Assembly (NCBI GenBank): GCA_965601925.1
Contig: OZ271854.1
Coordinates: 4,128,001 to 4,192,000 of the forward strand
Direction: 5' to 3'
Length of the DNA stretch: 64,000 nucleotides
Source: Alkalispirochaeta sp.
GTDB taxonomy: Bacteria > Spirochaetota > Spirochaetia > DSM-27196 > Alkalispirochaetaceae
In this document: one piece after another, positions 7,021-33,400 of the stretch
How the letters are laid out: each line of letters begins with the position of its first letter
How positions within the stretch are numbered: the first letter of the stretch is position 1
Notes under the pieces: generated by a model
Database searches by the model: none
What the model was told of the DNA's origin: nothing
What the model saw: only the letters and a program-made list of their open reading frames with translations
Program-made: the position numbers and the translations under genes

Positions 7021-8031
7021 GTGTCGCGGAAATCGATCGTTGTCTTTGCAAGTTCATTTATGGATGAGCTGGAAACGCTGCCGGAGCGGTCGCATGCCGC
7101 CTACCGCGCGCTCGAGACCTTTGTGGCCGGCTCCGCGGAGCGGTACCGGATCGAGCTTAAGTGCGACAGAGATCCTCACGACCCGGTACGACGCGAGGAG
7201 CTCTCCGAGGCGGTCGGTGTGATCGCCGACCTGGAGCGCTACTCAGCGGAACTCTTGACCGAGGTGGGAGGCGCCGGCGGCGGTACGCTGCGCATCATAG
7301 CGCGCTACGGTGTGGGTACCGATAGCGTAGCGCTGGATGCGGCGACGCGCTCCGGCGTGGTCGTCGCCAACACCCCCGGTGCGAACTCGTTGCCCACCGC
7401 CGAGTGGAGCGTTGCGACGCTCTTGGACGTGGCGGGGCGTCGGATTCCACACCACGAGCGTGCCCGCGCGGGACGAGACAAACAAGGGCCCTCGCGCCTC
7501 GATGTGTACGGACGCACCTTAGGTGTCGTCGGTACCGGTACGATCGGTCGATTGGTGATTGGGCTCTTGCGCGGCTTTAACATGGAGGTGCTCGCCTACG
7601 ATCCATACCCCGATGCCGCGTGGGCCGAGGCGGCGGGAGCGCACTACGTCGCATTTGAGGAGCTGTTGGAGCGCGCCGATCTCATTACACTTCACGCATC
7701 GGTCCGTCACACTATCGTCGGCGCAGCCGAGCTCGCATGTATGAAACGCAACGCGGTCCTGGTCAATTGCGCTCGCGGCCTTCTCGTCGACAATCGACTC
7801 GCCTACGAGGCCGTCAGAAGCGGTGCGCTCTTCGGCTACGGTATTGACGAGGTGTGGCCGCACCCTGAACTCTCGCTTGCAGGCCTCAATATCGCCGCCA
7901 GCCCCCACGTCGGCAGCGATACCGACGAGGGAAAGGCGCGCATGCAGGAGGCGTCGGCCGCCGCCGTGATCGACTTTCTGTCGGGAAAGCGTCCGCAAAG
8001 CGTCGTAAACCCAGCCGTGTTCGAACGATAG
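7021..8031 (+). CDS. D-isomer specific 2-hydroxyacid dehydrogenase (phosphoglycerate dehydrogenase-like)
   Basis: RYGVGTD, NTPGAN, GVVGTGTIG, VNCARG and SPHVG motifs. Confidence 0.9.
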   Translation: MSRKSIVVFASSFMDELETLPERSHAAYRALETFVAGSAERYRIELKCDRDPHDPVRREELSEAVGVIADLERYSAELLTEVGGAGGGTLRIIARYGVGTDSVALDAATRSGVVVANTPGANSLPTAEWSVATLLDVAGRRIPHHERARAGRDKQGPSRLDVYGRTLGVVGTGTIGRLVIGLLRGFNMEVLAYDPYPDAAWAEAAGAHYVAFEELLERADLITLHASVRHTIVGAAELACMKRNAVLVNCARGLLVDNRLAYEAVRSGALFGYGIDEVWPHPELSLAGLNIAASPHVGSDTDEGKARMQEASAAAVIDFLSGKRPQSVVNPAVFER

Positions 8032-13635: not shown

Positions 13636-14307
13636 CTATCGGTCGGCATAGTGCTCCGCCTCGTCGATCATCGCGCGAAAGAGGCGCCGCGTACCACCGG
13701 GCGCGAATGCCCGCAGGATGCGCGGAAACCCTCGAAACGGATCGCGAAACTCGGTCGTGTTTCGCTGCCTCATATAGGTAACGGAGCGCCCGTCGACCTC
13801 CATCTCCTCCATGAAAAACGCCCCGCGACTCGATGTGAGCTTGCCGTCGAGTGACTCGATCATCTCGTATTCCAGAATGAACCGACGCGGCTCCTGCAAG
13901 CGTAGATCGATCGCCTCGGAGCGCTGGCGTATATGGTAGGTCGCGTCGATTCCCATAAATCGAACGCCGATCCGCTGCACCTCGATCACGACATTGCCGG
14001 GCTCCGAGGTAACGGGTGTCCATTCATACTCGTGAAGGTTCGGCATGTACTCAGCGATCCGATCACGATTGAGAAAGACCATCGCCAACGCGTCGATCGG
14101 AAGGTCGGCGATCAGATGGTAGTCGGTATCACTGCGCACGATCGTCTCGCCCGCGCTGTCGGCGTGCGTGGTAACTTCGAACGCAAGCTGGGTCGCCCGA
14201 CGACCGACTTCGAGATCATTGTGTGCAACGGCAATCTCTCGCGCGTAGATGGGTGAGGCTATTGCAAGCGTACAAAAGAGTCCGAGCAATACATATATGT
14301 TACGCAT
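13636..14307 (-). CDS. Exported hypothetical protein, possibly START/SRPBCC fold
   Basis: Signal peptide MRNIYVLLGLFCTLAIASPIYA; EYMPNL segment and C-terminal helix reminiscent of SRPBCC. Confidence 0.5.
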   Translation of the reverse strand: MRNIYVLLGLFCTLAIASPIYAREIAVAHNDLEVGRRATQLAFEVTTHADSAGETIVRSDTDYHLIADLPIDALAMVFLNRDRIAEYMPNLHEYEWTPVTSEPGNVVIEVQRIGVRFMGIDATYHIRQRSEAIDLRLQEPRRFILEYEMIESLDGKLTSSRGAFFMEEMEVDGRSVTYMRQRNTTEFRDPFRGFPRILRAFAPGGTRRLFRAMIDEAEHYADR

Positions 14308-14589: not shown

Positions 14590-15011
14590 GTCTTCGGGCG
14601 CGTCTCCCCTTGTTCAACGAAGGGAGCGGCCGTCGGTGTCGATCACTCAGCAGGCCCTTCGGGCCAGAAGTCGTGCTCGCCACCGCCGTCCGTTCCCCGG
14701 CGCGTTTCAACAGAGATGTCTCGTCCTCTTGTGAGATGTCGGGGGGACCGGGCTCCGGGTTCCGGGTTCCAATTCCTCGGCCCGATCATGGGTGGATGGT
14801 GGTGCGGTAGTTCTTACGACGGCTTGTCGTACCCATCACGCACCGACCGCTTCTCGGCTCACTTCGGCCGCATACCCGAGCAGCACGCAGTGCGTGCGAC
14901 CAGGGGCCGATCGCCGGCGGTCGTCGCCCCGGGCCGGCTGCATGGGCGCGCGGCAATCCGCCAAGGATTGCGACCAGCCCCTGTGGGATTTCCTCCCTTC
15001 GCACTCGCGCT
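14590..15011 (-). repeat. Structured non-coding element, copy E1 (longest; island boundary)
   Basis: Shares core TCGGGCGCGTCTCCCC...GATCACTCAGCAGGCCCTTCGGGCCAGAAGTCG...CGCCACCGCCGTCCGTT with 18887-19122 and 23414-23742. Confidence 0.9.
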
Positions 15012-15116
15012 ACGGTAAGTCATGTCGCGTTTGGTTCAACTGCGCGGTTTCGCCCCACTTCATCGTCCAGATGAGGTTTTGGATCTCCACGTTATTGTAA
15101 AAACATATACCGACAG

Positions 15117-16037
15117 TCAGGGTCCTGACGGCACGTTGAACTCAAGCCGGAAGTCCGGATTTCGTGTTTGTAGTTCGTCAAGATGCTCATTGAACCACGA
15201 TTCGAGCCGCTCGTACGTTCCAGTCCGCGGTCCAAATACCGTGTTGTTGATACTGTCGATATACAAGGTCCGAATATTCGACTCCAACAATGCGTCGATG
15301 TTGTTGAGTTCGGGTGTCTGCATAATATTCAAATCAAACTCGCCTGGAGTTGTATCAATGTTGTCGAGCGAACGAATTTGCGTCGAATCGACCCTAAGCA
15401 CACTAAGTCGCGTCATCCCTGACATATCCGGCAACGAGGTAATCCCCGTAAATGCAACATCGAGATACTCGATGTGTTCGTTATTCACGAGGACATCAAT
15501 TGATGAAATATCAGACCGGAAAAGTGTCAAATGACGCACATCGGTGTCAGCAATATTGGCAATGTCTTCGACTCTATCATTGAATGACAACTGCGATAGG
15601 GACAACTCCTTAGGAAGCTCCGGAACAGTTCGGACGTCAATATAATAGGTGGAAATGCTATCAATCCAACTGATCGCCATAGGGGAAAGTCGTGCTAAAT
15701 TATGAAGCAATCCTGTATCAGATCGTATCTCGTCGCGCATACCGGGAACACCCAAGTTACGCGTCCTCGAAGACCATTCGCCATCATATTGGTCCGCATA
15801 TGCTGTTAGCTCGGCGTTGATTGCGTCGATCGTCTGTTGATCCAACTCGCCATCCGGCGTCATTAAGCGATCAGTTCCAAGAACTTCTGTCGTCGCCTCC
15901 TCATTGACCAAAACTACCGGTGCCGATGATATCGGCTCCGAATCGCTTGTGCCATCGACATCTTTCGAACACGCGCTAAGGCTAAGAAGCAGAAGTACAA
16001 AGCATATGAGAAAATACCATACTTGTTTCTTCATCAT
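15117..16037 (-). CDS. Leucine-rich-repeat lipoprotein, candidate immunity/accessory protein
   Basis: Lipobox LSAC; LRR-like units (VRHLTLFRSDISSIDVL, IEYLDVAFTGITSLPDM, LSVLRVDSTQIRSLDNI); AT-richer than flanks. Confidence 0.7.
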   Translation of the reverse strand: MMKKQVWYFLICFVLLLLSLSACSKDVDGTSDSEPISSAPVVLVNEEATTEVLGTDRLMTPDGELDQQTIDAINAELTAYADQYDGEWSSRTRNLGVPGMRDEIRSDTGLLHNLARLSPMAISWIDSISTYYIDVRTVPELPKELSLSQLSFNDRVEDIANIADTDVRHLTLFRSDISSIDVLVNNEHIEYLDVAFTGITSLPDMSGMTRLSVLRVDSTQIRSLDNIDTTPGEFDLNIMQTPELNNIDALLESNIRTLYIDSINNTVFGPRTGTYERLESWFNEHLDELQTRNPDFRLEFNVPSGP

Positions 16038-16062
16038 TACCGGTAAGATGACGATTCAAACA

Positions 16063-17082
16063 CTACTCGGCTTCGCGGTACTGATTTTCAGGTACTTTCC
16101 AAGCTCGAACGGTACGCTCAAGTCGCTCTATTGGTCGCTCCCATGTGTGGTTGCGAATGATGGCGCTGATGGCGGTGTCGTCCCAACGACTCCCGGGGTA
16201 CACATCCAGAATCTCGAGTTGCACGGATCGAGTCGGCGTAGGGAAGTTAATGTATGAGAGCTCGACGACATCTTCAAATGTGTATTCAAACTCAAACCGT
16301 GTTTCCGGGTCCGTCGATCGGATCATCGCCGTACGCACACGATTGTTCATTCGAAACAAATGACGTCGCTCAGGATCAACAAATCCATTGAGCACGAGCA
16401 TGTGATCAGAGGGCTCTTCAAAGGTGATATCAAGCGTTACGCCAATCCCCGGCCCCTCTTCGCCTTCGACCCACGGATTATGGAGTGCGTTCCAGTACAT
16501 TGAGATTTGGTCACCAAAGAAAATGCTGCGAAGCAGCTGTGGTCCATACACAACCTCTTCTCCGTTAACGTCTTCTGACAAGATAGAGTGCGCAGATATC
16601 GACTCAACCCCAAAGCTGTATATTCGATGAGGTTCATTTCCCTCCGTTGCGGGCTCCAAAATCCAGAGTGCGTTCGGATTGTGGGCATTTATCTCAGTGC
16701 TGAAAAGCTGAAGGAAATTACCGCCAAACAACGTGAAAAAATCTTGACCCATGATCGTCGTTTCGTAATATCCACTCTCTGTCAAGACAATATCGTCGAC
16801 ATTCATCTCTTGCCAAATGGTGTCGAAGAACCACGTCATTGTGTCGCCCTCGCGCACAACGAATGATCCCGCGACCGGGAAATACCCGAACGCATTAGCG
16901 GCCACTTCGACTATCGGTTCAGCCGAGCCTGCATCGTCACTAGGTTCAACCATCAAAAGATGTGTTTCGTCAGCTAACATCGGCTCGCCGTTTGCATTGA
17001 TGGCACGGGAATCCCCTTCGGATTGCCGACAAGAAATAACCGTGATCAGAAAAATGATAATACCGACTGTTACTCGTCTCAT
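16063..17082 (-). CDS. Lipoprotein with C-terminal discoidin-like/NADase-type glycan-binding domain, candidate immunity protein
   Basis: Lipobox VISC; PWVEG..GPGIG, LNGF, NNRV and LDVYPGSRWDDTAIS motifs; starts 3 nt after the cassette stop. Confidence 0.7.
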   Translation of the reverse strand: MRRVTVGIIIFLITVISCRQSEGDSRAINANGEPMLADETHLLMVEPSDDAGSAEPIVEVAANAFGYFPVAGSFVVREGDTMTWFFDTIWQEMNVDDIVLTESGYYETTIMGQDFFTLFGGNFLQLFSTEINAHNPNALWILEPATEGNEPHRIYSFGVESISAHSILSEDVNGEEVVYGPQLLRSIFFGDQISMYWNALHNPWVEGEEGPGIGVTLDITFEEPSDHMLVLNGFVDPERRHLFRMNNRVRTAMIRSTDPETRFEFEYTFEDVVELSYINFPTPTRSVQLEILDVYPGSRWDDTAISAIIRNHTWERPIERLERTVRAWKVPENQYREAE

Positions 17083-17085
17083 AGT

Positions 17086-18886
17086 TTAATAGTACCAACT
17101 GTACCACGTATCTTCGAAGGGGACTTCGAATAACGTTGCGTCGATATGGTACCCACTCTCCATACCGGTCGATTCTAGAAATCCGAAAGTCGATTGAATC
17201 GTATCGTGCGATGTCACAAAACATCCGTCAGAGAAACATCCACTCGCCCAATCGGATGTAGCACCGGCAGCTCTATTTGAATGAAGAAGCCACCGTTCCC
17301 AGTCTGTTCCGTTACGCCCATCGTTACCGATCGCCTGTCCATCCAGTGTTGCGGCATTGTTAAGAATCAGTACTGCGTTCTGATTGCCGTCAATCTCTCC
17401 TGCAAATCCCGACGACTGACCATAATACGTTATACCCAACGATCCCGGCGCGATCGTGTTTCCCTGCACATTGCCGTGTACCGGATGATCGAACGGCTGG
17501 CTTAAGTTATCACCGCGCCTGTTCGTTGTCATATTGTCGACGGTGTGATACCCGCCAAACGCATCACCCGCGATGAGGTTACCGTCCAAGTCGTACTGCT
17601 GAATCACCAGATGATCCTGACTCTGGCTTCCTGGGTTATAGAGGTCATCCTCGTAAGCCGACCAGCCATTGTAGGTGTCGGGATTGCGAAAGATCTCGGC
17701 CTTCACGGTCGAGTATTCATACGCGCCGTCGGTGTACTCAGCCAAAATCCGACCCTGCTCGGCAAGATTTCGGTCGGTCAACGTCATGCCCTCAACTGTA
17801 AAGCCGCCTTCTCCGTCTGCTTGCCAACGACCTGCATCACCATTCCACTCCGCTCCCGCATTCTTCAACAACGCCTCGCCCACTAAGCTGTTCCGTTGCG
17901 CATCCGTCAGCCCATCAAGGCTTGCTCCCGGGTCGTGGCGTAGTATCTGCACATCAACCGCCGAAAATCCAAACACATCCATGAGTGTCTGGTCATCGTA
18001 GTTGCTTGGATCTGTTATGTCGCCTCCTAATAGCTGTCCCGCGCGTTCGTCGTCAACAAGGTTTCCCAGCGATGCAGCCCACCCCATTTCGTTCTGAGCG
18101 CCCTGTCCTTCTGGCGTCATCGTGCTGATCACATCGCCTTCGGCGTTTAGATACTCGACGGTCAACTCTTTGCTCCCGTCGTCGATGAGCTCATGAGTTC
18201 CATCGGCGTGTACGACCAGTTTCCAATAATCCGCACTGGAATCATAGGCACCGCCCACATACGAGACAAAGTCGCTGAAGTCACCTGTCTTCTGCGCCTC
18301 CACCAACCGCTTCACCTCGTCCTGTTGCATCCCCGTCAGCTGCTCGTCTCCGTAGATCCCCGCGACCTGCTGCGCCACCAACGTGTGGCCGACGACCGCT
18401 TGTACCGTCTCCTGCTGTTGTCCCAGCTCCCCGTTATCCACCCCATCCCGAAACGCCTCGTGCGATAACGTCAGTCCCAGCTGATACTTACTCCCCGCAC
18501 TCGCGCCGTCTCCCAGGTAGATCTGCTTCTGTCCGTTGACCAGCTCCGTCTCGGCACGACCGTCCGTACCGCCCCGTACCAACCGCGCCTCGCCCGACAT
18601 CAACTCATCATACAGCGCTTCGGTTTCGGCCAGTCCCGACGTGTCCAGCATCCGCATCGCGATCGCCTCGTCTCCGCGGAATCCCTCACGATGGATGTCC
18701 AAGCTCCGCCGGTACGATGAGAATCCGCCCATCCCTTGCATCACCTGGCCCACGCTCATCCCGATGCCCCCCATGCCCACATTGAACACCGGTCGATCGC
18801 CCCCCAGATTCAGCTCCAGTAGTCCCGTACCCGTGGGTCCTCCGAGGTCGCTCATGCTCAACACATTCAACGTCGTTTGCCCCGTC
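17086..18886 (-). CDS. Orphan C-terminal cassette 2 of the giant protein; L,D-transpeptidase-like (YkuD/Tlde1-like) tip
   Basis: Begins with TGQTTLN..GLLELNLGGDRPVFNVG, homologous to the giant protein; HEAFRDG and DYWKL; terminal H-x16-SDGCF; no signal peptide; the ORF-track N-terminus is just translated repeat. Confidence 0.75.
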
Positions 18887-19122
18887 GGGCTTCGGGCGCG
18901 TCTCCCCCGGTTCCAATTCGGGGGGAGCGGTCGTCGGTGTCGATCACTCAGCAGGCCCTCCGGGCCAGAAGTCGCGACCGCCACCGCCGTCCGTTCCCCG
19001 GCGGAGTACCGTAGGTGTGTCTCATTCTCATATGGGATGTCGGGGGGAGACCGGGCTGCGGACTGATAGTCCTCAGCCCGGCAATGGGTGGATAGTGCTG
19101 TGATTACTCTTACGTCGGTTCG
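18887..19122 (-). repeat. Structured non-coding element, copy E2 (shorter)
   Basis: Alignable to E1/E3 from TTCGGGCGCGTCTCCCCC to CTTACGTCGGTTCG. Confidence 0.9.
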
Positions 19123-19185
19123 CCGCAACTACTCTGCGTACATTCTCTTGCAGAGACTTCTCGATCTCTGCTCGTATCATCCCCG

Positions 19186-19836
19186 CTAACGAGTCCCTTG
19201 TGGGCAGTTTCGTTCAGGACTGCATTTGCTCGCCATTAGGCCAAAGTGATTGAGAAACAAATCTATCACTCGATTGCCGTCGTAAGGTTCTAATGACTCG
19301 CCGTAGTCGAGCCATCCATGGGCTGCTAAATCATGGGCAGTCATGCTCAATAGCCAATTGTAAGCCCCATCATTGCGTACGGTGTACTCAACTGCGCGTA
19401 CTACGAATGCCATCATTGCCTCATGGGCGCGCGGTTCTTGCGCAGGATCCAGTAGCCCAAGAGTTCCGGAAACTCCTTGCAAGCCAGCAATCGCCAAGGA
19501 ACTCGTCGCCCAACGGCGAGTCGATTCAGATCTCTCGATGAGCTTGACTTCCGACAAGAGAGAAACAACGTCGTCAACTTGCAGATCCGTCCGTCTCTCC
19601 AGCGCTAGGAGCGCGGCATCTGCAGAAGCCGACATGGGAAAATGGGCCGCGAAACGATACATATAAACTTCGAGCAAAACAGACGTATCGAGCTGCGAAA
19701 GCTCATCGTGAGGGATCGCTTCAACTCGCTCTATCATCTCACGTAGTTCGTTATCACTGTCCCAAGGGTCGGCATGTGTAAGTGTTGCGATAACGCAACA
19801 CTGCAAAATAAAAAGTAATCCGTAACGGTTCTGCAT
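19186..19836 (-). CDS. Exported protein, candidate orphan immunity (paralog of 20290-20916)
   Basis: Signal peptide ending THA-D; LDPAQEPRA and RAVEYTVRND shared with the paralog; TGATG overlap with the upstream remnant. Confidence 0.75.
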   Translation of the reverse strand: MQNRYGLLFILQCCVIATLTHADPWDSDNELREMIERVEAIPHDELSQLDTSVLLEVYMYRFAAHFPMSASADAALLALERRTDLQVDDVVSLLSEVKLIERSESTRRWATSSLAIAGLQGVSGTLGLLDPAQEPRAHEAMMAFVVRAVEYTVRNDGAYNWLLSMTAHDLAAHGWLDYGESLEPYDGNRVIDLFLNHFGLMASKCSPERNCPQGTR

Positions 19837-20045
19837 CAGTGGTACCATCCCGTGAAAGGTGTGCCGGGCCGTGATAGCAAGCCGCGATACGAGCTCGGAT
19901 TGTTGCCTAAACCACCAGGAGGAATGCTACCACCCACGGCAAACGCCATGAGTCCCTCCGTGTGTCCAAAGTACGGAACTGGAGGTGGGGCCGGATTGTT
20001 GATACCTTCCACTGCGTAGTTATACAGCCACTGGCCGGCGGGCAT
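19836..20045 (-). pseudogene. Remnant toxin tip, paralog of the last ~68 aa of cassette 1
   Basis: AGQWLYNYAVEGIN..YFGHTEGLMAFAVGG..FTGWYH versus AGQWVYNYGVEGIN..YFGHTEELMAYAIGG..YTGWYY. Confidence 0.8.
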
Positions 20046-20289
20046 CTCTTGGCAGGTATCTATCAGGTCGGTCGTCAAACAACAATTCGGAACTCTGCTC
20101 CAACGCGTCGACACTGTTAAAGCATATGCTCTGATTGTTGTGCTAAAAAACATTGATCGCTCGTTTGTTCCTACCGCTTCATCTCCCGTTTCTCCACTTC
20201 AGCACTTGCATGAAGTATTGGATACCAAAAACCTGCTGCGTTCGCCGTGAGTCCTCATACAATTAACCAGCTTTAGTCTCGCCGTATCC

Positions 20290-20916
20290 TTACCAGCCCT
20301 CGGGTCGTTGCATTGTCGCGGTGATTCCGTAGTGATCCAAAAACGATTGGACAAATGGTCGAACTGCGTTTCGATCATCAGGCGGATCAAATCCCAACCA
20401 ACCACCCCGATGTAGTGTTCCGACAGTGGCGGTTAGCAAAAAGTTTTCCGCAGCGTCATTTCGCACAGTGAACTCGATCGCGCGAGCAACAAAACCCATC
20501 ATAAGTTCAGCTGCGCGCGGCTCTTGATCGGGATCCAGCATATCCATCTCTTCGGCTAAATCCTTTAGTCCTACTAAGGCCCACATACTAGAATCCGACA
20601 AATAGACGGACTCAACTGAAGCTATAATCGGGATGTCAGCCATAGTCACCAATATATGATCAGGCTCAAGGTCAGACCTAAAAGCAAGCTCATTAAGTAC
20701 ATCCAATGCGGTGGGTGATACATCTATATAATGGACTGAATGATATGTATAAGCCTCAACGAGCTCAGTGGTAGAAAGCTCATCGAAATCCTTTTCGGAA
20801 ATCGAATCAAAATACTCTTTAGAGGACCGTAAAGCGTCTTCACTGTCCCACCACTGTGCATGTATCGCGTCGATGAGTAACCCCAAGATGATTGAACAAA
20901 TTATCCATTTCTTCAT
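20290..20916 (-). CDS. Exported protein, candidate immunity for cassette 1
   Basis: MKKWIICSIILGLLIDAIHA signal peptide; TAATG stop/start overlap at 20914-20918; AT-rich. Confidence 0.75.
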   Translation of the reverse strand: MKKWIICSIILGLLIDAIHAQWWDSEDALRSSKEYFDSISEKDFDELSTTELVEAYTYHSVHYIDVSPTALDVLNELAFRSDLEPDHILVTMADIPIIASVESVYLSDSSMWALVGLKDLAEEMDMLDPDQEPRAAELMMGFVARAIEFTVRNDAAENFLLTATVGTLHRGGWLGFDPPDDRNAVRPFVQSFLDHYGITATMQRPEGW

Positions 20917-23413
20917 TAATAATACCATCCTGTATAGGGTGATGGAGGCGTCAGCAAACCATCAAATGATGGAGCACCAGGATAAGCCCGATCGGCTCCC
21001 ATGAAACCGCCAATAGCATACGCCATCAACTCCTCAGTGTGGCCAAAATATGAATAGGGAAAACCTGGACTGATAGACCTGTTGATGCCCTCGACACCGT
21101 AGTTGTATACCCATTGGCCCGCAGACGTCGTCTGGCCGGTCTTCAGCACACCGGTCGTCAATGCTCGCAAGCTGTGTACACCTTCATGCATAAGAACGGC
21201 CGCGCGACTCTGACTAATACGACCAGGCTGAAGATCGCCGGCTTGCAATGGAGTAAGCACAAACTCTCCAAAGCTCATCATACTTGGAAGTCGATTTAGA
21301 TTTGGTGCACTTCCCGCAATCTGTGAGCTGATTGATGCGGCTAACTCGAACTGTTTCGTCGTTAGTCCGAGCACACTCAAGTTATCTAACACATCTTGCG
21401 TACCCTGCTGCCCCAATCCGTTCAATGTTCCTTGCAACTCCTGCAGTGGCCCAACAAACACTGAATCCTGAGGATTGTTGAATAGTTGGTCGCCGAAACT
21501 ACCCGATGTCCGATCGTGCAGCATCTGAGCAACCATCTGGGTGTTAATTAGAGAATCGAACGATACGTTCACATTGGGCAAGAGTGCACTACCGGCAGGG
21601 TTCATATCGATTGCCTCACTCACCCCTTCGGCAAACGTCTCGGCCTGAAACGCCAGGTTGAACGCTTCGTTCTGCGTGTCCAAGAACTCCCGAAGCGGGA
21701 CCGTATTGCCGTTTCCGTCGACAACTTGGGTACTATGTTGATTGTTCGGTAGATTGACTTCTTCCCCTACCTCGATAGAATCCCGATCGACAAGATGCGG
21801 GTTCATCCCCACGATCATATCCACCAGCGCCGCAGCCTTCGGATCGTTTGGGTCGATGCCGTAGATCTCTTCAATTAGGCCGCCTAAGGTGTCCCCGGCC
21901 TCTACCTCAGAAACGAATCCTAAATCTCCCGTAGCATTGATCTCCTGCACCGTATGAAGCCAGTTATCCTCACTGAAATCATAGCCGGTCATCACGTGTT
22001 CGGCAAACGCACTGAAGTCGCCGCTCGCCAATGCCTCCTCCATCATGTCCGCCTGCTCGCGTAATGCCGCGTCGCTGTCCAAGAATCCTTCGTAGTCCTG
22101 CTCCATCCGCATCGCCATCAACGTGTGCGCCGCCACCGCATCAAACGTCTCCTCATATTGTCCCCGAAAACCGTCTCCGATCCCGTTCCGGTGCGCCTCG
22201 TGTTGTAGCACCACCCCCGCCCGCAGACGGCTATTCACATTGTCCCGACCCCGTTCGCCCAAGGTCCCCAGATGGATCGTCTTCCGGCCATTCTCCAGCG
22301 TCGTCTTTCCATCCTGATTCACAAACCCGATCGCCATATCCGTTCGTCCCGCCAGAATATCCTCGCGGGCCGCCTGTAGTTCCTCATCCCCGTACGAATA
22401 CGCCGATCGCAACATCGTCCCTTCCCGCCGTATCCCCTCATATCCTGCCGCATACCGCGTTCCGCCGAACAGCTCGTACGCTGTGTTCCGCATGTTCTCT
22501 TTCCACGTTCCGAACCCGGCAACTCCCTGCGCTACCGTCACCGCGCTCGCGTCGATTCCTCCCATACCCATATTGAATACCGGTCGGTCGCCGCCGATGT
22601 TGAACTCCAACAACCCCGTCGACACCATCGCACCATTCGCCATCTCGATGCCGAACATGTTCATATTCAGCATGTTCAACGTCGTCTCACCCGTCCACGC
22701 GTACTCCAGTCCCGCCTGTGCCGCACCGCCTACCAGACCGCTGAAACTCCTCGCTTGGCTTGCGTGTTCCGCGCTGAATCCTTCGAGGTTTCCTGCAACA
22801 CCCGCGCCCACAACCGCGCCGGCCAGTCCCGCCAGGGCGTCCTCGCTGATCGTCGCGTCCTGGAACGTGTCGGTGTTGAAGTCGATGTCAAAGAAGCTGT
22901 CGCTATTCCACTCCAGCGAGTTGATCGCCGCGCTCGTCGTCGTGCTTGCTACGTACTGCATCCCGGCCATCGCCGCCTGGCCCACCAACGTGCTTCCCAC
23001 GTTCACCACTTCACCCAATCCGCCGCTGATCAGGTTCGTCATGAGTGTCGCCGCGGCCTTCTTCCCAAACGCTTCCCACGCATCGTCCGCGTCTTGCGCT
23101 CCTACCGCCACGTCCAGGCTCGTGAAGATCGCGTCGTCGGTCATGCTGATCGCCGTCGAGACCGCCGCTCCCGCCGCGTTGCCCGCCACCGCCGTGACCG
23201 CCGCCCCCGCAACCGATGCCGCGACCGCAAACCCGATGTCGTACGCCATCGTCACCGTCGGGGCGCCCAATAGTCCGTCCGGCTTCCCGTCGTTGTTCGC
23301 GTCGTCGTCCCAGAATCGTTGGCGATACAGTGGTACTTCCATCGCCGCCAGTCCGCGGCCCAACCGCCCCTCGTTTTTCATGAACGATTCCATGATCCGG
23401 CCCATCTCGCCGT
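20916..23413 (-). CDS. Orphan C-terminal cassette 1 of the giant protein; LysM domain plus HExxH metallopeptidase-like tip
   Basis: First ~205 codons nearly identical to the giant gene at 26300-26915; LysM-like VEAGDTL..MNPHL..IEVGEEVNLP (~21748-21909); HEGVH at 21174-21188. Confidence 0.8.
22798..23413. repeat. 616-bp direct repeat of giant-gene segment 26300-26915
   Basis: Colinear near-identical DNA encoding GEMGRIME...AVVGAGV; differences mostly synonymous. Confidence 0.95.
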
Positions 23414-23742
23414 AGAGTCTCGGGCGCGTCTCCCCTGTTCCAATCACGGGGGCCGGCCGTCGATATCGATCACTCAGCAGGCCCTTCGGGCCAGAAGTCG
23501 CGATCGCCACCGCCGTCCGTTTCCCAGCGGTTTCTATCAGGTGTGGCTCGTCCTCGTATGATGTGTCGGGGAGACCGGGCTCCGGGTTCCAATTCCTCGG
23601 CCCGGCAATGGATGGATGGTGATGTGACTAATCTTGCGTCGGTCCGTTGGAATCACGCCGCGACGGCCGCTTCTCGGCTCACTGCCGATCGCCGGCGGTC
23701 GTCGCCCGGGCCTGTGGGATTTCCTCCCTCCGCCCTCGCGCT
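23414..23742 (-). repeat. Structured non-coding element, copy E3
   Basis: Alignable to E1 over its whole length (ends CTGTGGGATTTCCTCCCT..CTCGCGCT on the plus strand) except for two missing stem-loop modules. Confidence 0.9.
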
Positions 23743-23791: not shown

Positions 23792-24463
23792 CTAAACCCC
23801 TTCGATCATGATGTACTGATCCGCCGGCACCTCTTCGATCAATTCAAGCGTCCCCGCATCGGGATCGATCCGAATAATCGCATCCGGATGAAACCACTGA
23901 TCGTATACCAACGGATCGGTTTCAAAGTCCCAGTGCTCCAACCCAAACGAGTACTCCACCCGCTCTCCGATGAGCGATGAGGGATCGGAAACCGCCGCCA
24001 AGTCTTGGATCGTCACCAACGTGTTCTCCTTCTCCACGATCAGCCAATCGGAGAGTCGATAACTGTCGCCGTCTCGACGTGAGTAGAAAAACACAGCTCG
24101 GTCGGCTAAAGCAGCAATGTTAAACCAGCCAGTATCTCCCGTTCGCGGGATCGACATTCCTCCGCTATGATAAGCTCTATTTTCTTGTTGTTTCTCTCGA
24201 ATCCATCGACTCATGGTTGGAGTTGGCAGTTGTGCTCCACGATATTGCTCAAAGTCCACCGTCTCGTTGTTTCCTGCGTCAATCTGCTCGAGCAATTCGA
24301 TCAACTCCTCGTCGGTCATGGTCGGTCGCTGTCCCTCGGCAACGACCGGCTCGCTCGCGGTCGTGTCCATTTCGGCACTCATCGGCTCTTGCGTCTCTGC
24401 AGGGCGTACACAGGAACCCAACATCACTACCAACACTATCGTCATCATTATTATCCTGGCCAT
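23792..24463 (-). CDS. Lipoprotein, candidate cognate immunity of the M23 domain
   Basis: Lipobox LGSC; starts 2 nt after the giant gene stop. Confidence 0.7.
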   Translation of the reverse strand: MARIIMMTIVLVVMLGSCVRPAETQEPMSAEMDTTASEPVVAEGQRPTMTDEELIELLEQIDAGNNETVDFEQYRGAQLPTPTMSRWIREKQQENRAYHSGGMSIPRTGDTGWFNIAALADRAVFFYSRRDGDSYRLSDWLIVEKENTLVTIQDLAAVSDPSSLIGERVEYSFGLEHWDFETDPLVYDQWFHPDAIIRIDPDAGTLELIEEVPADQYIMIEGV

Positions 24464-24465
24464 CG

Positions 24466-27400
24466 TCAGTTCCCGTAGATGTGTGCGTCGAGATGAAAGG
24501 TATATTCGGTCGGATCCAAGAAGATGAACGGATCATAGCGATACCCCGTTCCTCGTGGCAGACGCTGATTCGCGTTGCTCATCAAGCTGTCCACCAACGG
24601 ACTTCGCTGCTGTGTCGTTATATCCACATGCAAGTGATTCCCATACGGCGACACACCTGGCCATACCCCTGTGTTGCCCGAGAGCCCGAGTTGCGTATTA
24701 CCGAACACCAACTGACCGTCTGCAAGGTTCTCGTTTCGTGACTCAAGATGAAGGTAGCGGGTCAGGATCGAATCGGTGCGAGGCTCTCCCTTGAATGTAT
24801 ACGTAACATCCGTGCGTGTCTCCTGAAAAAGTCCTGCAGCCACATTCAAATCGTCTCCAAAATTGTTGAATCGTGTATTTCCCCCGAACATGGAATGGAC
24901 CGGCGTACCCGCGGGCACGGCAAAGTCCACCCCGGTGTGCGGATTGGCCGAGTATGACCCGGTCGCGCCGAAGATCGCCGTCACCTCCGAGCCCGCCATG
25001 ATGTTATTCACCTGCAGATTCGTCTCCCCCGTGATGAAGTTCTGCTCCTTCCACTGCTCGTAGCTGATCACATCCACCTCCGGTTGCCGCCCGTCCCAAT
25101 AGTCGGTCTCCGGTCCCAATACCACCGGTCGCTCCACGTCCATCAACCCTCGCGCTACCAGGTCATTATAGATATTCAGCGTGTTGTGTCCCGCCAGCCG
25201 CTCGTTATAGATCGCCGCATACCGCTCGTTGTCCAGTCCAATCGAGCGGCCCGCGTTGCCCTCGTGGTTCCACCATACGCCCTCTCCGCGAAGCTCGAAC
25301 TCCTCGCCCCGCAAGAGCTCCGCCGCCTCGGCCGCCCCGATTCCCAGGATGTTCTGCAATCCTCCCTGAATCCCCTCGGCACCGATCCGGTTCCCGTCGT
25401 CGTCCAGGATGTAATTCCCGTTCGAGTCCTTCAACCACCCGTCTTCGGTCATCACCAACGAGCCGTCTTCCATCAGTTTCCAGTTATCCACCGGTCCCTG
25501 ATTCGGGAGGTAGCTCCGGCCGTCCGCCAATGCATCCTCGATACTCTGCTCAAAGGCCGCATTCCCCTCCAACTCTAACGCCGCGACCACATTGTTGTAC
25601 ACCGCATCACCCACCAGATGGGCGTTCGCCTCCGTCGTCTCCCCGGTCAGCATCCGGTCAAACAAATGCGTTCCCTCGTGCGCCGCCACCGACGCCAACA
25701 TCGCCGCCGTCTCTTTGTCATTCGCCAGCAGGTCTCGGTTCATCACGATTGTCGTCGGATCCGCTCCATGGTTGTAGTATCCGTAGTGTCCTTCGTCCAG
25801 ATCCTCATAGCGCGTCTGGATGTCTTTATTCCACACCCCCGTTGCCAACGCCAGATTCCCCGCGATCGCATTGTAGTTCACCAGATTCAGGTCACCTCGA
25901 CTCTCAATTCCCCGTTTAGTACCCAATGCGCCGCCGATCTTCGCACTCCCGATCCGCGCAATATCGCTCATACCGCCCATCGCCGTCGCAATCGAGCCCA
26001 CGTCAAAGCTCGTACCCCCGCTTCCCACGTTGAACGCAGGGCCGTCGCCGCCGATGTTGAACTCCAACAGTCCCTGACTCAGGATTCCAGGCCCATCGCC
26101 CGTCTCATACTCGATACCCAGCATGCTCAGGTTCACCAGGTTCGCCGTCGTGTCTCCCGTCCATGCGTAGTCCACACCCATCTTGGCTGCGTTCCCCGCA
26201 AGACTCGAAAAGCTCGTGATCGCGTCGGTGTCGAATACCTCGCTGTTCAACGCAACGCCCGTGCCGTCCGATCCCAGGAAGTCTCCCAGTCCGCCGGTCA
26301 CCCCCGCTCCCACAACCGCGCCGGCAAGGCCCGCCAGGGCGTCATCGCTCATCGTCGCATCCTGGAAGGTGTCGGTGTTGAAGTCGATGTCGAAGAAGCT
26401 GTCCGAGTTCCATTCCAACGAGTTGATCGCCGCACTTGTAGTGGTGCTTGCCGCGTATTGCATGCCCGCCATCGCCGCCTGGCCCACCAACGTGCTGCCC
26501 ACGTTCACCACTTCTCCCAATCCGCCGCTGATCAGGTTCGTCATGAGTGTCGCCGCGGCCTTCTTCCCAAATGCCTCCCACGCATCGTCCGCGTCTTGCG
26601 CTCCTACCGCCACGTCCAGACTCGTGAAGATCGCGTCGTCGGTCATGCTGATTGCCGTCGACACCGCCGCTCCCGCCGCGTTCCCAGCCACCGCCGTGAC
26701 TGCACCGCCGACCACCGATGCCGCGATCGCAAACTTGATGTCGTACACCATCGTCACCGTCGGTGCGCCCAACAGTCCGTCCGGTCTCCCGTCGTTGTTT
26801 GCGTCGTCGTCCCAGAATCGTTGGCGATACAGCGGCACTTCCATCGCCGCCAGTCCGCGGCCCAACCGCCCTTCGTTCTTCATGAACGCTTCCATGATCC
26901 GGCCCATCTCGCCGTGACCCGCTTCCTGCACTCGCTCCGGGTTGTCGCTGCGCATGATCGGCGCGTAGCCGACGTGGAAGTTGAATAGTCCTTCCGTGTC
27001 GTGGTGCAGGTACTCCTCCTCGCCGCTCTCTTCATTCTCCCGCGTCCGGTGGTAGCCCGCCGCCGCTTCCCAACTCGCGGTGGCTGCCGCAAAGCGCTCT
27101 TTGAGCTCGCCGTTCAGCTCCTCGATACTGATCGCGCCGGTTCCTTCGTCTTTCTGGTCGTCGTTCCGTCCGAAGATCAGAATCTGATATCGCTCCATCT
27201 CTTCGTACGCCGCCGCGATCATCGTCTGGATGCCTCGACTCGACAAGCCGTCCAACGACTCCTCCGAGAGGTCCACCTGGGGTGCAAAGACCGGTGAGGT
27301 GAAGTAACGATAGTCTTCTACTCGCTGTGTCTCTCGTTCGATGCCCCCAAACAGCGTCTCATCGATGATGATCCGGCGACTCCATTCTCGTCCCGATAAG

Positions 27401-30400
27401 CGGTATCCTTCCCGCTCGAAGGTGTCCTCGATGCTTCCCGCCATGTTCCGGTTCGCGTCGTCTATCCCGTCGGTCGCCGCGTTGATCCCTTCGCGGATCT
27501 GTTCCCGCATCTGCAATGCCGTCACGCGCATCGCGCGCCGCTGGATCTCTTCGCCCAACTCGTCCGATAGCGCTCGGGCGCTTCGCGCACTCTGCGTCGT
27601 CGAGCGTACCCGCGGCAGATACGCCGCCACGATCGGGCTCCCGCCGGCGCGGTCGGCGATCCGGCCCGCCTCGCGCACGATCGTCGAGAGCATCCGTCCG
27701 TCGGTCGCCTCCCGCACCGTGTGTTCCAGATTCCCCACTTCGATATCCAGATCCGGGACTGCGATCGCTTCGCTTTCGGCGATCAGCCGTTCGGCGTCCA
27801 GTCCCACTTGTCGCGCCGTCGCCTCGCTCCCGGCGCGCACCGCGTGCTGCGTCGTCCGTTCGATCCATTCCGTACGCGATTGCGTCATCCGGTCGTAGCG
27901 GGCGTTCCACACCGCCACCGCCTCCGCATACGCCTCCTGCGTCTCTTCCTGGAACCGTTTCCGCTGTCCCGCCAACCGGACCGATCCCGCCTGCCACTCC
28001 GTGAGGCCCGTCGCCACGAGGCTGTTCATCCGGACCGTCCAGTCGTCCTCGCGACGCATCAGCGTCTCGTACTCCATGGTCAGGCGGTGGGATTGCGCGG
28101 TATGGACGCCGCCCAGGCGCATCCCCGCCGCGTCGTGAATGTGGGCGGCGATCAGCTCCAGCTGAAATGCCCGCGCCTCGTCGTTGAAGGTCGCAAGAGC
28201 GCCGGTCGGCGCTCCCGTCGTACCGCGGCGAATCAAGACCGCCTCCATCGATCCCTGTCGATACGCCATGTGGTCGGCGATGTCGTAGGCGGGGTCGGCA
28301 AAGCGCGTGCGCGTCACCGTCTCCAGCTCCGCCTCGGTGACCTCTTCGCCCCGCAGATAGCGTCCCAACACCGTCTCGTAGGATATCTGGTCGTTCTGTT
28401 GCACCGTCGCCAGCTCCGCGATCCGGTCGGCGACCGCCGTTCCCGCGGTATGGACGTCCGATGCCAACCGCGCCTCGGCGGCGGCAAGGACCGAGAGGCT
28501 CGTCGCGCGCTCCGATGCGCTTCCGCCGCTCACCACCTCGGCAATCATGGCGCTCAGTTCGGCCGAAATCGCACCGGTACCCGACGCGGTCAGGGAGGTA
28601 CGCACCTCCGCCGCGGTGGGGCGTTTGCCCGCCAGTACGCGCAGCTCGGCCGCCTTCGTATTCTGATCGTCAAGCGCCGTCGTTCCTTCGCCGAATAGTT
28701 CCATCGAGACCGTCCGCTCGTCCGCACCGGAGTAGTTCGGCAGCTGTCGCCGCAGGCTTCGGATACGCTTACCTCGGCGTCGCTTGAAGATCCGTCGGAG
28801 CCGCATGTAGTCCCGCTGCTTGTCCCGCGCCCGGTCGTCCACGTACTCGCGCGCGATATGTGAGACGTCGTCGGCGACCCACGTAACGTGGTCGGCGGCA
28901 AACGATACGTTCTCCCCGCCGTGCACCACTACCATAGAAAAGAAGCGATAGGCGCCCAGTGCCAAACTGTTCCCGTGCACCCGATGGTGTGCCGCCTCGA
29001 GGTCGTTTCTGACGCGGCTGTCCACGCTTCCTTGAGACCATCCGATCTTGCCCAATAGGTTATTGAAGGTCTGATTGTTGTAGATCGGCGCTTTGGTCAC
29101 CGCATAGTCATCCTCAGGATGAACACCGGCAAAATAGAGGTCGTAATACAACGCCAGGCCGATATCGCGATATACTCCGCCACCCAGTTGGTTCATCGTG
29201 CGAATCCATGCACCCAAATCGGTCGAAAAGGCTTCCTGCCAGTCGCCGGAGAAGTAGCCGGCGGTCTGAAACCGTTCCGAATTTCCCGAAATCCGTCCCG
29301 TACCGATCGCGTCGTAGTCCGGTGCGAAGGTATAGTCCGCGCCGTATACCAGCTGATGGGCCGTCCGTGCGACCTCCATTTGGCTCGCCGCCAATGCACC
29401 TTCGGCCCCCGAGGTCTTGACCGCCAACGTCTCCCGGACCACCGCCGCCTCTTGGTAGGTCAGCATCGCCTCGCGCTCCTCGGCGATGAGGTCTTCGTAG
29501 CGCTGGTCCCGACTCGCGTCGGTCACACGCTCGGCGTGCTCTTCCACCAGACGCAAGGCGGTGCGCGCTCGTTCCAACTCCTCGCTCCGCCGCAGCACCA
29601 CCGCCGCCGGGTCGATCTCGTCGGTCAGATACCCGGTGCGCGCGTAGTCCATGATCTCCTCGGCCTCTTGTAGCTCCCGGCGTGCCGCAGTATACGCGCC
29701 CCGCGCCGTATCCACTCCGCTCGCCGCCGCCGCATAGTCCGTTACCGCCTCATCAAAGGCGCGAATCGCCTCCTCGTACTCCCGTCGGGCGTCGTCCACC
29801 CTCCCGCGCTGCGTCTTGATATCTTCCTTCAGCGGGGCGATGGTATTTGTCGCAAACTGCGCGGCATCCGCCTCAAAGTCCGCCTGCGTCGCCCGCGCCG
29901 CATCCAGGTCACCCAGCGTCCCCAGATAGGTCGACTCGGCACCCAGAAAGGTCGTCCGGGCGCCGGATCGTGCGCTCCCCGCCGCCCCGTCGGTCACCAA
30001 CTCCACGATCTCGTCGCGGCTGCTCGTCGTCAACGCCGCGATCGCCTCGCCGATCAGTCCCTTGATCGGCGCGCTCGCGATCCCCCCGGTAGTCGTCGGG
30101 CTGGTCAGGGTGTGATAGCTCGTGTCACCCGCCTCGTCCACCAGATGTCGCAACCACGCCGCCCCGGCGTTGGCTTTCGTCAGACCCTCGTACTCACTCC
30201 GCAGGGCGCCGACACCCGCGTCGTCGGCACTCCCGCCGACCGCGGCCGCCGCCGCATCGCGATCATCCGTACTCGCATCCGGGTCTTCCAACACCTCCAA
30301 CGCCGCGGCCAATACTTCGGCGCGCTCCCGATTCTCCACGGGACCCACGAACGACACCGACCCACCCAGCTCCGCGATCCGCGCCCGCGTGTACACCGTC

Positions 30401-33400
30401 ACCAGGTCCGCCACCGCCGTGGGAATGTCGTCCATCGCCACCAGCTCTTCGTAGATATCCCGCAACGTCGCAATGGACGGAACGGTGTCTCCCGTGGTGA
30501 TCGGCGCCACGATCGCCGTTACCGTCGCCGCGTAGACGGCCATTCGCGTCCCGATCGTGGTGATCGAGACCTCCCGATACGCCTCCCACGCGTCCCGTAA
30601 CGCCTCGGCGTCGGCGAGTGCCGTCACCTCGTCGCGAAGCAGATCGTCCACGAGTCCCGCGTAGTCGACGCCGAAGTCCGTATCCCGCTCTCCGGTCTCA
30701 AAGACGATCCGCGCCGCTCCCGCCGCATCGCTCCCGTCCGAAAGCGCATCCACGTCGATCGTCACCAGAGACGGGTCAAAGACCACATACGCCACCCCCG
30801 GCGGCGGCGTGCCCGCTCCCGTGTCGTCGGTCATGATATAGACCGTGCCGATCGCCGGATCCGCGGGGATCTCGCTCGCATCGGCTACCGTCACCACCGT
30901 CGGCTCCGTCGGCGCACTCAGGCCCGCGTCCACGGCCGCCGTCACCGCCGCCGCGTAAGCACTCGTCACCGCCGTATCTCGCGCCGCATCGATCATCGCG
31001 GCCTCCGCCGCCACCAAGGTGTCGTAGTGTCCTTGGATCGCGTCGCGCGCCGCCTCTCGCGCCGCGTCCAGAGCCGTGTAGGCCGCCGTCACCGCCGTGG
31101 TGTGGCCGTCCCCGATCACCGCGATCTCATCCGCGCTCGCCCATCCCGCCTCGTCGGTCACCACCGTGCCGCGCAATACGCGGATCGCGTACTCGCTCCG
31201 CGCCACATCCCGTGCCGCCGCCGCGGTCGCATCCGCCAGCAGCCGTTCCGCCGCCAGCTCGCGCAGCCGTCGTTCCGGTGTCCCCGTCCCCACCGCCGTC
31301 GCCGCATCGATCGCCGCCACCAGGTCCGCATACCGTCCCGTCTCGATATCGAGTCCCGCCGCCGCCAAGGTCAGTCCCAGCTCCTCGGCGTCCACCGTCG
31401 CCCAATCGATCGCGAGCCCCGCGAGTACATCTCGGTGCGCGATCAGCGTCGGAAGGTCGACGTACTCGTCGCTCTCCGCATCGTCACTCCCGGCAAGGTC
31501 ATGGGCGATCGAGAGCGCGTCCTCCCACGCCGTCGCCACGTGCGCATCCGCGTCGGCTCTCGCATACGCCTCCGCATTCGCCGCACGCCCTTCGCCGGCG
31601 TGCGTCGTAACGTGATCGGAGAGGGTGCGAATCAACGTGTCGTAGACGCTCGCGTCGTTTAACCGCTGCACCTCTTCCGCCGCCGCAAGCTCCGCGGTAA
31701 TCCGTCGCAGCTCCGCCTCCTCGATCGAGAGCGCCGCCTGCCGGTCCGCCAACGCCGCCTGGGCGTCGGGTAACAGCGTCCGCGTCATCGTCTCCAAGGT
31801 CGCGATCGCCTCGGCAAACGCCGCCTCCGCCGCCTCGAACGCCGCCCGCTCCACAGCATAGCGCGCCTCGGTCTCGGCCAACGTCGCGCGGTCCGAGGAG
31901 GTATCCGCCGCGTATGCGGCCACCGCCTCGGCAATGGCGTGCTGATCCTCCAGCGCGGCGACCATGCCCGCCAGTCGCGCCGCCTCCACCTCGCCGGAGC
32001 TCAACGCCGCCCCGTAGGTGTCCAGCTCGCCGAACATCCCGTACAGACTCGCCTGGGCGCCGTCGCGCATCGCCTCGAAGTCCGCCAACACTCCGCCGGT
32101 CCCGTCCGCGCCGTGCCAATAGACCAGCTCCTCGTTTACCTCCGCCAACGGCGCGTGCGTCGCCGCATACCGCCCGTTGATGAGGTCTAAATCCATGAGA
32201 ATCTTCGCTGTCGGCGCCTGATGGTCGTAGGCCGCTACACCAAAACGGTTCTGTAACCACGCTACCCACTCGGCCTCGTGGTCACGAACGTAATTGCCTA
32301 TGTTAGTGAACGGATGTCCGAGACTTTGAGCTGTAAATGTTCTCTTCAGATCAAAATCACCATCGTGGTTGCTCAAAAACGTGTTGTATCGCGCATTCGC
32401 AAGCTCGGTCTGTTTCGCTTTGCGCTGCGAGAGATAGGTTGTTTGATCATCGAGGAGAGCGGTACGCATCTCCTCCAAGGCGGCGATATTGCGCTTCGCC
32501 ATCGCCACCACGTCGGCCGCTTGGCGATACACCGCCAGATACGCCTCGCTCTCCGATCGGATCTTCGCCTGTTCTTCCGCCGCCGCACGGGCAAGCTCCG
32601 CCATCGTCTCGTCAAACGAGTCCCGAAACGCCGTCGTCGTCTCCTCCCACGCCGCCGCACCTACCGCCAGCACGTCCTGCATCTCTCCGATCCACGCGCT
32701 CCGCGACGCCTCGAACGATCGCAACGCCTCGTCCCACGCCGCCTCCGCCTCGCGATACTGCTCCTGCGCCTCCGACTCCCACGCCATCCGTTCGGCGATA
32801 AATCGCTCTTCCGCACCGTTCCACGCGCTCAATCCCCGCGCAAACTCCGCCTCAAAGCTCTCCTGCCACGCCTCCGCCTCTATCCGCGCCTCGCCCACAT
32901 CCGCGTCACCCTCCGGTACCAACGCCGCCAGATGCGCGCTCACCTCGTCCAACCTCACCTGCGTGTCGCGAATCAACCGCCCCGCCGTCGACCGCGCCGT
33001 CTCCTCCTCCGCCTGCCGCCGCATGCTGTAGCTGTCCTGTAACCGCCCCTGCGCCAACCGCCGGCTCGATCGTATCACCTGCGACCGAAACTCCCGCTCG
33101 ATATGCGCCTTGTACTCGCCCACCGATACCGCCAGCTCGCTCGCCACCGTCTCCCGCACCGCGCCCTCAAACGTTCCCAACACCTCCGTCGCCGTCGCCT
33201 CCGCGCTCGCTTCCCACGCCGTGTACAACGCCGCAAACGCACCCTCGACCTCCGCCTCCCACGCCGCCGCGGCCGCCTCGTATCCCTCCGCACCCTGCAG
33301 GATCACATCCCCCGCCTCGTCGAAGGTGTACTCGCCCCCGCCGTCGGTCTCGTACAGATATCGCCGATTCGCCGCATCGATCGCGCGCCGCAGCCCCGCC

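Follow-up and report, generated by a model that had tools for sequence, protein, structure and literature searches.

A mosaic structured repeat at the boundaries of toxin-immunity modules in an Alkalispirochaeta genome

We analysed a discrete, non-coding, multi-hairpin repeat, here called E, that follows each toxin-immunity module of a giant-toxin locus in Alkalispirochaeta sp. The locus lies in a window of 64,000 nucleotides (nt) (G000:C1:4128001-4192000, G000 being this genome) within a single 5.05-Mb contig. E has a defined anatomy and a conserved fold. In four genomes of three genera, E or a related element is enriched and constantly oriented at the toxin cassettes of two unrelated toxin families; E is also present where congeners have an empty site. 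The reading that we favour, with confidence a little short of even, is that E, a structured repeat of mosaic make-up that was once mobile, serves as the 3′ boundary of a toxin-immunity module and as the joint for the next displaced fragment. We infer that it acts at the DNA level. A module would be bracketed 5′ by conserved toxin-coding homology and 3′ by E, so that modules could be added, displaced or exchanged as units.

The minus strand of the window, referred to below as gene sense or toxin sense, carries all long open reading frames (ORFs) of the region, including the toxin and immunity ORFs. In gene order, a toxin of 3070 amino acids (aa) is followed by a 223-aa ORF, the copy E3, an 864-aa ORF, three small ORFs, E2, a 680-aa ORF, proteins of 339 and 306 aa, E1 and an unrelated secreted-protein gene. 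As the 864-aa and 680-aa ORFs are 5′-truncated copies of the 3070-aa gene, this is a polymorphic-toxin locus with two orphan modules. It has the layout of an orphan cassette array, namely a full-length toxin followed by 5′-truncated homologous fragments, each with downstream small genes; the RHS array of genome G017, described below, has the same layout.

All three copies are assigned to the minus strand, the strand inferred to fold. E3 (23420..23742) and E1 (14594..15011) are full elements, each with a core (23420-23580, 160.8 bits, and 14594-14753, 173.8 bits) and a type A tail running to 23742 and 15011, respectively. E2 (18892..~19122; core 18892-19056, 160.5 bits) has a hairpin and part of tail A in addition to its core, and it lacks the outer terminus (5′ in gene sense) common to E1 and E3. 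The gap to the stop of the preceding immunity gene or last ORF is 49 nt for E3 (ORF 23792-24463), 63 nt for E2 (19122 to 19186) and 105 nt for E1 (15011 to 15117). The copies align over about 250 columns with a mean column identity of 68%. In a repeat search of positions 12000-36000 they shared a block of 142 nt (78-85% identity), and no further copy turned up there. Alignment and ORF positions confirm a preliminary description of this DNA, which had reported three diverged, same-orientation copies, one per module, about 50-105 nt after the last immunity gene. Its statement that the 64 kb hold no further copies also stands, as covariance model R1 gives just three places in the window. The last copy marks the island edge as it had proposed: E1 is the final copy, and its core end faces the non-toxin secreted-protein gene (13636-14307, minus strand).

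E measures 190-440 nt and combines fixed termini with a mosaic interior. A full element in gene sense starts with AGCGCGAGGG, continues through a tail and a core of about 160 nt, and ends with GACGCGCCCGA; its gene-sense termini read 5′-AGCGCGAGGG ... GGGGAGACGCGCCCGA-3′. Tails are of two kinds, type A (165-260 nt) and type B (about 105 nt). The core is closed by stem P1, formed by GUCUCCCC with GGGGAGAC, and contains P2, a long imperfect hairpin of about 40 bp (about 26 pairs) whose internal loop is conserved and whose tip varies. The stems first noted by inspection were found again, CTCCC..GGGAG with three different loops and CCGGGC..GCCCGG with a different paired interior in E2. The 5′ CUCCCC is also able to pair locally, as the preliminary description drew it, and G000 alone does not favour this pairing or P1 over the other. 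In G017 the closing stem differs in sequence (GGUCCCGCCGG with CCGGCGGGAC) yet, read by eye, stays complementary. Coding potential was rejected, the indels between copies not being multiples of three and one copy carrying a 35-nt insert in its hairpin tip. No tRNA or transfer-messenger RNA gene was found, and promoter and terminator scans gave matches at shuffle level and no terminator-like U tract. Consistent with the early impression that E belongs to no known family, an Rfam search of window positions 12000-36000 on both strands gave no match at E up to an E-value of 1, and E-like modules in 11 other loci gave none at the gathering threshold.

Smaller repeats are lodged inside some copies. 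A hairpin of about 45 nt resembling a repetitive extragenic palindromic (REP) unit (GCAATCC...GGATTGC) is nested in the E1 tail at window positions 14930-14980, and a related strain in a metagenome run is without those 50 nt of E1. The REP-like unit also occurs alone or in tandem in G000 (527483-527619, with three tandem units; 1475225-1475310; 3515225; 3517494; 3936753). The hairpin tips of several E copies, and some tails, carry another small hairpin repeat (GCGTTCCTCG...CTGCGGTACGC) as an insertion, a case of repeats nested within repeats; its sites in G000 are 4313460-4313500, 4727960-4728010, 1766040-1766090, 3111450-3111520 and 1887230-1887270.

The fold was tested on 25 aligned model hits against a named P1 plus P2 structure of 34 pairs, in which 85.5% of alignment cells were paired. 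Both sides had changed in 21 of the 34 pairs, compared with a mean of 11.2 in shuffles (0 of 500 reached the observed count) and 6-11 when partners were slid; this count carries two caveats, as the copies are related and the model to which they were aligned was itself derived from 14 of them. Stems are thus retained through compensatory change, as had been supposed from the three window copies. The wobble cells of P2 tell the two strands apart: 42 need folding of the gene-sense strand and 8 that of the other strand, and pair columns lean the same way by 20 to 6. This asymmetry suggests that it is the toxin-sense strand that folds; the elements had initially been placed on the plus strand, on which the R1 cores were also listed. 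In gene sense the hairpin tip reads C-GNA-G in 12 of 25 rows (by eye), which we take to be a stable triloop type.

Strand assignment bears on two explanations in terms of RNA. E might be an independent small-RNA gene family transcribed from the plus strand; it is compact, conserved, structured and multi-copy, and several solitary copies (those away from toxin genes) immediately follow highly expressed genes carried by that strand. The wobble asymmetry favours the opposite strand, however, no promoter, terminator or Rfam match was obtained, and the tails are mosaic and variable; we find this explanation scarcely credible. Folding in gene sense agrees with a cis-acting RNA element in the polycistronic toxin/immunity transcript. 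Such an element might stabilise the message between cistrons, be a processing site, or act as an insulator, with the upstream immunity message protected and the downstream toxin fragment kept silent. Stems are kept by compensatory change and E always comes after the last immunity gene. Moreover, passages of PMC3150448 on orphan regions of contact-dependent growth inhibition (CDI) loci describe co-transcription with the main genes and untranslated orphan toxins. By contrast, flanking transcription runs antisense to roughly half of the solitary copies, the U tract, promoter and Rfam results are as above, and the G.T wobbles are equally compatible with folded single-stranded DNA. A cis-acting RNA would also leave the exact joint to truncated fragments unexplained, and we consider it improbable.

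Orphan toxin fragment 1 (20916..23413, minus strand; 864 aa) is homologous to main toxin aa 2255-2570 (75.6% over 316 aa; 616 nt at 91.2%), the homology starting 6 nt past the E3 core end. Orphan toxin fragment 2 (17086..18885, minus strand; 680 aa) is homologous to main toxin aa ~2507-2575, again from 6 nt past the core end, here of E2. Taking E3 and E2 together with copies c1337, c1333 (=c1324) and c1329, nucleotide homology to a full-length toxin gene sets in 6-7 nt past GCGCCCGA, the 6 bases between being variable, and opens with ACGG or ACGA (ACGR); at c1329 weaker similarity extends for a few more bases. ACGR was present at that offset in none of the nine solitary flanks read. The toxin breakpoints lie at aa ~2081-2145, 2255, 2266-2307, 2468-2503 and 2507. 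Being at different toxin positions, they indicate separate events that joined toxin DNA to one end of E. Some junctions are duplicates (c1324=c1333, and four of six in G017).

The two sides of the joint differ in divergence. Toxin-coding homology adjoining E is 91-99% identical to the main genes and E copies are 75-86% identical to one another, a difference that would fit modules arriving with their own E. Copies c1324 and c1333 have a common core and joint and different tails, which points to an exchange at the border of core and tail. A 5-mer shared by both flanks, as a target-site duplication would leave, was seen in 4 of 16 elements against 12.5% of mismatched flank pairs, which is not significant. 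Four sequencing runs offered contigs only; these break at E, and the apparent joints were cross-matches among E copies. One metagenome run holds related modules at 90-95%.

The distribution of E in G000 was mapped with BLAST and R1 at E-values below 1e-3, weaker opposite-strand echoes being set aside. The genome of 5.05 Mb (5053 kb) has 26 distinct places, 13 with strong (124-174 bits) and 13 with diverged (38-79 bits) copies, so the early impression of no copies elsewhere does not extend beyond the 64 kb. Ten places, and eight of the 13 strong hits (>=124 bits), fall within three giant-toxin loci that are paralogues of one another, at 1.324-1.348 Mb, in the window and at 4.313-4.325 Mb. These loci amount to about 54 kb, or 1.1% of G000, and E is enriched in them about 35-fold over their share of the genome. 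By our tally, every toxin-linked copy has its folding strand in the direction of the toxin genes (10 in G000, one in G009, six in G017 and two in G019). The remaining 16 places are solitary, for example after fusA, ilvD, guaA and a haemolysin-III-like gene, and stand in either orientation relative to their neighbours. At the fusA site, the single site covered by the empty-site comparison and the one at which presence/absence polymorphism between orthologous sites was observed, both flanks could be located in every one of the 16 congeners, and the six spacers read are short and hold a terminator-like hairpin and no E. E there is therefore an insertion of this lineage. A tree of copies has two subfamilies, with all toxin-linked copies inside one and interleaved with solitary ones. 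Some copies are nested or paired (4931050/4931393, 3870688/3870876, 4313398/4313554). In one toxin locus (locus A, 1325198-1328490), the orphan array is broken up by an IS3-family element and by an immunity-like gene of 266/269 aa that is present in duplicate (98% over 625 nt), and a weak E copy (1327085) stands beside them.

We asked whether the association holds outside G000. R1 matched just G009 (one place and a weak second) and G019 among 21 other genomes of the family. In G009, two RHS-repeat fragments flank E, whose core end again adjoins the downstream one, and 129 aa are missing relative to the intact RHS homologue of G017, so that this is not a simple insertion. A nucleotidyltransferase/HEPN-like gene pair (L104:2240-2876; named from the translations) stands there between an RHS fragment and the weak E-like hit at 3005-3128. 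G019 carries two copies downstream of a giant-toxin homologue, one of them clearly with tail B. The complete genome of G017, from another genus, holds a related element whose two termini are the same, whose closing stem covaries and whose interior differs. All six copies lie in one 30-kb RHS array (328979-358810) in RHS-gene sense; four immediately precede orphans of 822-1134 aa, one precedes a remnant and one is terminal, and the rest of that genome has just a 37-nt fragment of the element. The main RHS gene there encodes SpvB, TcdB_midN and RHS domains. At its nt 7439-7449, encoding part of a YD repeat, is an 11-nt inverted copy of the element end, 30 nt upstream of the start point of four orphan copies. 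This inverted copy has no counterpart at the G000 toxin breakpoints; motif searches gave a single partial match (main gene C, nt 2553), away from the junctions. The filler of the G017 orphan also contains a 9-nt inverted copy of nearby gene sequence. Across G000, G009, G017 and G019, E or its relative is thus linked to toxin cassette junctions in three genera and two unrelated toxin families.

Wider searches added little. No close relatives of the toxin region were found in genome contigs. A strict core pattern hit two loci in genome contigs (the G009 contig and a chance hit of 10.4 bits) and four in metagenome contigs; of the latter, L119 and L120 score as the G009 copy (140.4 bits), L122 has its match positioned as in the G009 contig and was not scored, and one is a chance hit. 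It gave 0 in viral contigs and no match in plasmids. The terminal 13-mer was sought in 99 genomes of the order, and all 20 sites fetched outside G000, G009 and G017 were ordinary sequence, mostly coding. A locus in a genome of another family (G030:C1:1008000-1047999) has different junction furniture: cassettes homologous to the window toxin are separated by repeated genes ending ...ISEITGLSEQEIKKL, which by eye resemble Rpn/PD-(D/E)XK recombination-promoting nucleases, and a 68-nt perfect-stem hairpin is present between them in three copies as well.

The distribution cuts both ways, and several results weigh against a boundary and joint role. The 16 solitary places are among them. The 5′-terminal module of the G017 element matches stretches of 65-80 nt in nine genomes from four other families of the order, in intergenic DNA beside ordinary genes where inspected; E is a mosaic of more widely spread repeat modules. 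With the solitary places, this contradicts the suggestion that E is dedicated to this locus, and the idea that hits would sit specifically at toxin junctions holds in part, the junction link recurring in other genomes and in the second toxin family. Folding energies are just modestly better than those of shuffles: mean z-scores were -2.4 in gene sense and -1.9 for the other strand, with values below -2 in 12 and 7 of 24 copies, respectively, and E3 alone gave -0.9 as RNA and +0.15 as DNA. Copies of E at 75-86% identity are poor substrates for homologous recombination. No linked recombinase or transposase was identified: G000 has no gene for a reverse transcriptase, IS110 (PF01548), TnpB (PF07282) or Y1 transposase (PF01797), and its one IS91, which is frameshifted, has no E nearby. 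Finally, all evidence comes from four genomes of one family, and hence from few independent events.

The main rival to the boundary and joint reading is that E is a selfish or neutral mosaic intergenic repeat without a selected role, of the kind of miniature inverted-repeat transposable elements (MITEs), bacterial interspersed mosaic elements (BIMEs) or neisserial intergenic mosaic elements (NIMEs), which toxin islands tolerate and array duplication copies. This is possible, if rather doubtful. It would account for the many places outside toxin loci, the empty fusA site, the nested and paired copies, the small repeats inside E and a terminal module that is widespread in the order in ordinary contexts. 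It would likewise account for the interleaving of toxin-linked and solitary copies in the tree and for duplicate junctions. It accounts less well for the ~35-fold enrichment, the exclusive location of all six G017 copies and the constant orientation to toxin genes. At least five different toxin breakpoints are joined to the same end of E, all at ACGR, and a second toxin family repeats the arrangement; neither a transposase partner nor a significant target-site duplication was found. In searching for an autonomous partner, limited to reverse transcriptase, IS110, TnpB, Y1 and IS91, no pair of termini was seen to enclose a gene, one candidate being ordinary coding DNA. As for inverted repeats, the two ends of E share just the palindrome GCGCG.

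Candidates from known element classes were also considered. An identity as an IS110 bridge RNA or TnpB omega RNA is not supported, there being no cognate PF01548 or PF07282 match in G000. Nor is a REP/BIME identity supported, with no match to the REP-associated tyrosine transposase (RAYT; PF01797) and a core of about 160 nt against palindromic units of 20-40 nt, though smaller REP-like units are nested in E. E resembles REP/BIME and MITE families (ERIC, RUP, BOX) in being dispersed, structured, non-coding and expanded in particular lineages, with empty sites and nested small repeats. It differs in having no RAYT/Y1 gene, clear inverted ends or significant target duplication, and in its strong, oriented link to one gene class. 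NIMEs (dRS3/RS) are mosaic, modular, multi-copy intergenic repeats that cluster around variable surface and toxin cassettes and have been proposed to aid recombination, and Correia elements fold into long hairpins. E resembles them in these respects and differs in sequence, in organism and in joining toxin fragments at a fixed end.

The resemblance to integron attC sites, raised at the outset, is upheld in position and fails in the features that define attC. As in attC arrays, including clusters of attC sites lacking integrases (CALINs), a structured site with a strand-specific fold lies 3′ of each cassette in one orientation, and the next cassette begins a few bases past its end. One could therefore suppose that E is an unusually large attC-like site used by an integron integrase encoded elsewhere, and G000, G017 and G019 each encode such an integrase above the TIGR02249 cut-off. 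An attC site, however, has RYYYAAC and GTTRRRY ends that pair with each other, measures ~57-141 nt, conserves structure rather than sequence and is used by IntI as a folded bottom strand. RYYYAAC/GTTRRRY ends were not found in E, whose termini AGCGCGAGGG and GACGCGCCCGA are without AAC/GTT triplets and are not complementary. Lacking R''/R' core motifs and end pairing, E is also larger (190-440 nt) and conserved in sequence (cores 70-86% identical; 70-85% conserved). The sole integron integrase of G000 (3568284-3569582; TIGR02249, 401 bits, cut-off 265) is separated from the window by 575 kb. No copy of E comes closer to it than 40 kb, and none lies within about 2 kb of the integrase in G017 or G019. 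Integron integrases occur in eight of 22 family genomes, including G000, G017 and G019, and the other five are without E. Nor did a simple scan with core motifs find a canonical attC array within 20 kb on either side of the G000 intI. The DNA just upstream of this integrase gene is AT-rich. With motifs absent, termini non-complementary, size and conservation wrong and the integrase remote, attC was rejected as an identity for E, and use of E by a distant integron integrase is very unlikely. The cassettes also differ: those of E are 5′-truncated gene fragments with immunity genes, not whole promoterless genes, and no integrase is adjacent.

Close parallels in layout are CDI and Rhs loci, where, according to passages of PMC3150448 and PMC3482391, a main toxin is followed by 5′-truncated fragments with immunity genes that retain coding homology. 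These passages describe recombination at the 3′ tip of toxin genes in orphan arrays; the only boundary they name is VENN-coding or core-coding homology, and they call the exchange mechanism unknown. The toxin-fragment-immunity plan is the same here, unlike those arrays in having a structured repeat at every boundary. Within the literature covered by a full-text search, no description of a non-coding junction element was found. Among spirochaetes, the vmp system of Borrelia hermsii is, according to PMC6011951, one in which silent cassettes lie between upstream coding homology (UHS) and a downstream non-coding repeat (downstream homology sequence, DHS), with crossovers proposed for gene conversion. 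Both systems have spirochaete cassettes bracketed by coding homology and a downstream non-coding repeat. They differ in that the DHS serves antigenic variation on linear plasmids; a conversion role for E would be by analogy, with E copies 75-86% identical.

The other genes of the window locus are all on the minus strand. The main giant toxin gene (24466..33678; 3070 aa) encodes a signal-peptide-like N-terminus, a long Ala/Glu-rich body and a C-terminal M23 peptidase domain (PF01551, 30.7 bits). Downstream, the putative immunity gene of the main module (23792..24463; 223 aa) belongs to no family and is assigned by its position and lower G+C at third codon positions. The small ORFs of module 1 (19186..20928; 212, 105 and 220 aa) are putative immunity or accessory genes of low G+C and no family. 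In module 2 (15117..17082), the 339-aa accessory protein has an NADase-type glycan-binding domain (PF25302, 1.1e-11; NF047619, 86 bits) and the 306-aa one has weak leucine-rich-repeat matches. G+C is 47-53% in the variable parts and about 60% around them. G000 encodes three paralogous secreted proteins of ~3000 aa with 57-78% identity (window 24466-33678, 1339883-1348297 and 4316449-4324689), in which the C-terminal M23 peptidase is the sole family match and a HExxH-like motif comes after the conserved region. They represent an undescribed polymorphic-toxin scaffold.

Under the boundary and joint reading, the folded toxin-sense strand of E would be the site of an end-specific reaction that attaches toxin-gene DNA, in G000 by joining at ACGR sites of the toxin gene. 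A stronger version, which we think unlikely as it stands, makes E the recognition and joining site of a dedicated cassette-capture system for polymorphic toxins, integron-like but without attC or a linked integrase; a cut at the fixed 3′ end of folded gene-sense E would be followed by joining to toxin DNA at ACGR. If this were true, cutting and joining at the E end would create the 5′-truncated orphan cassettes whose origin is open for CDI, Rhs and related loci. Orphan toxin/immunity arrays are widespread, and in the relevant passages of PMC3150448 the acquisition and displacement of cassettes are called unknown. The same structured element at each boundary, with a fixed end joined to varied breakpoints, offers a testable handle on how such arrays are built. 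Were E merely a selfish repeat, it would still be a clear case of a repeat shaping a toxin locus.

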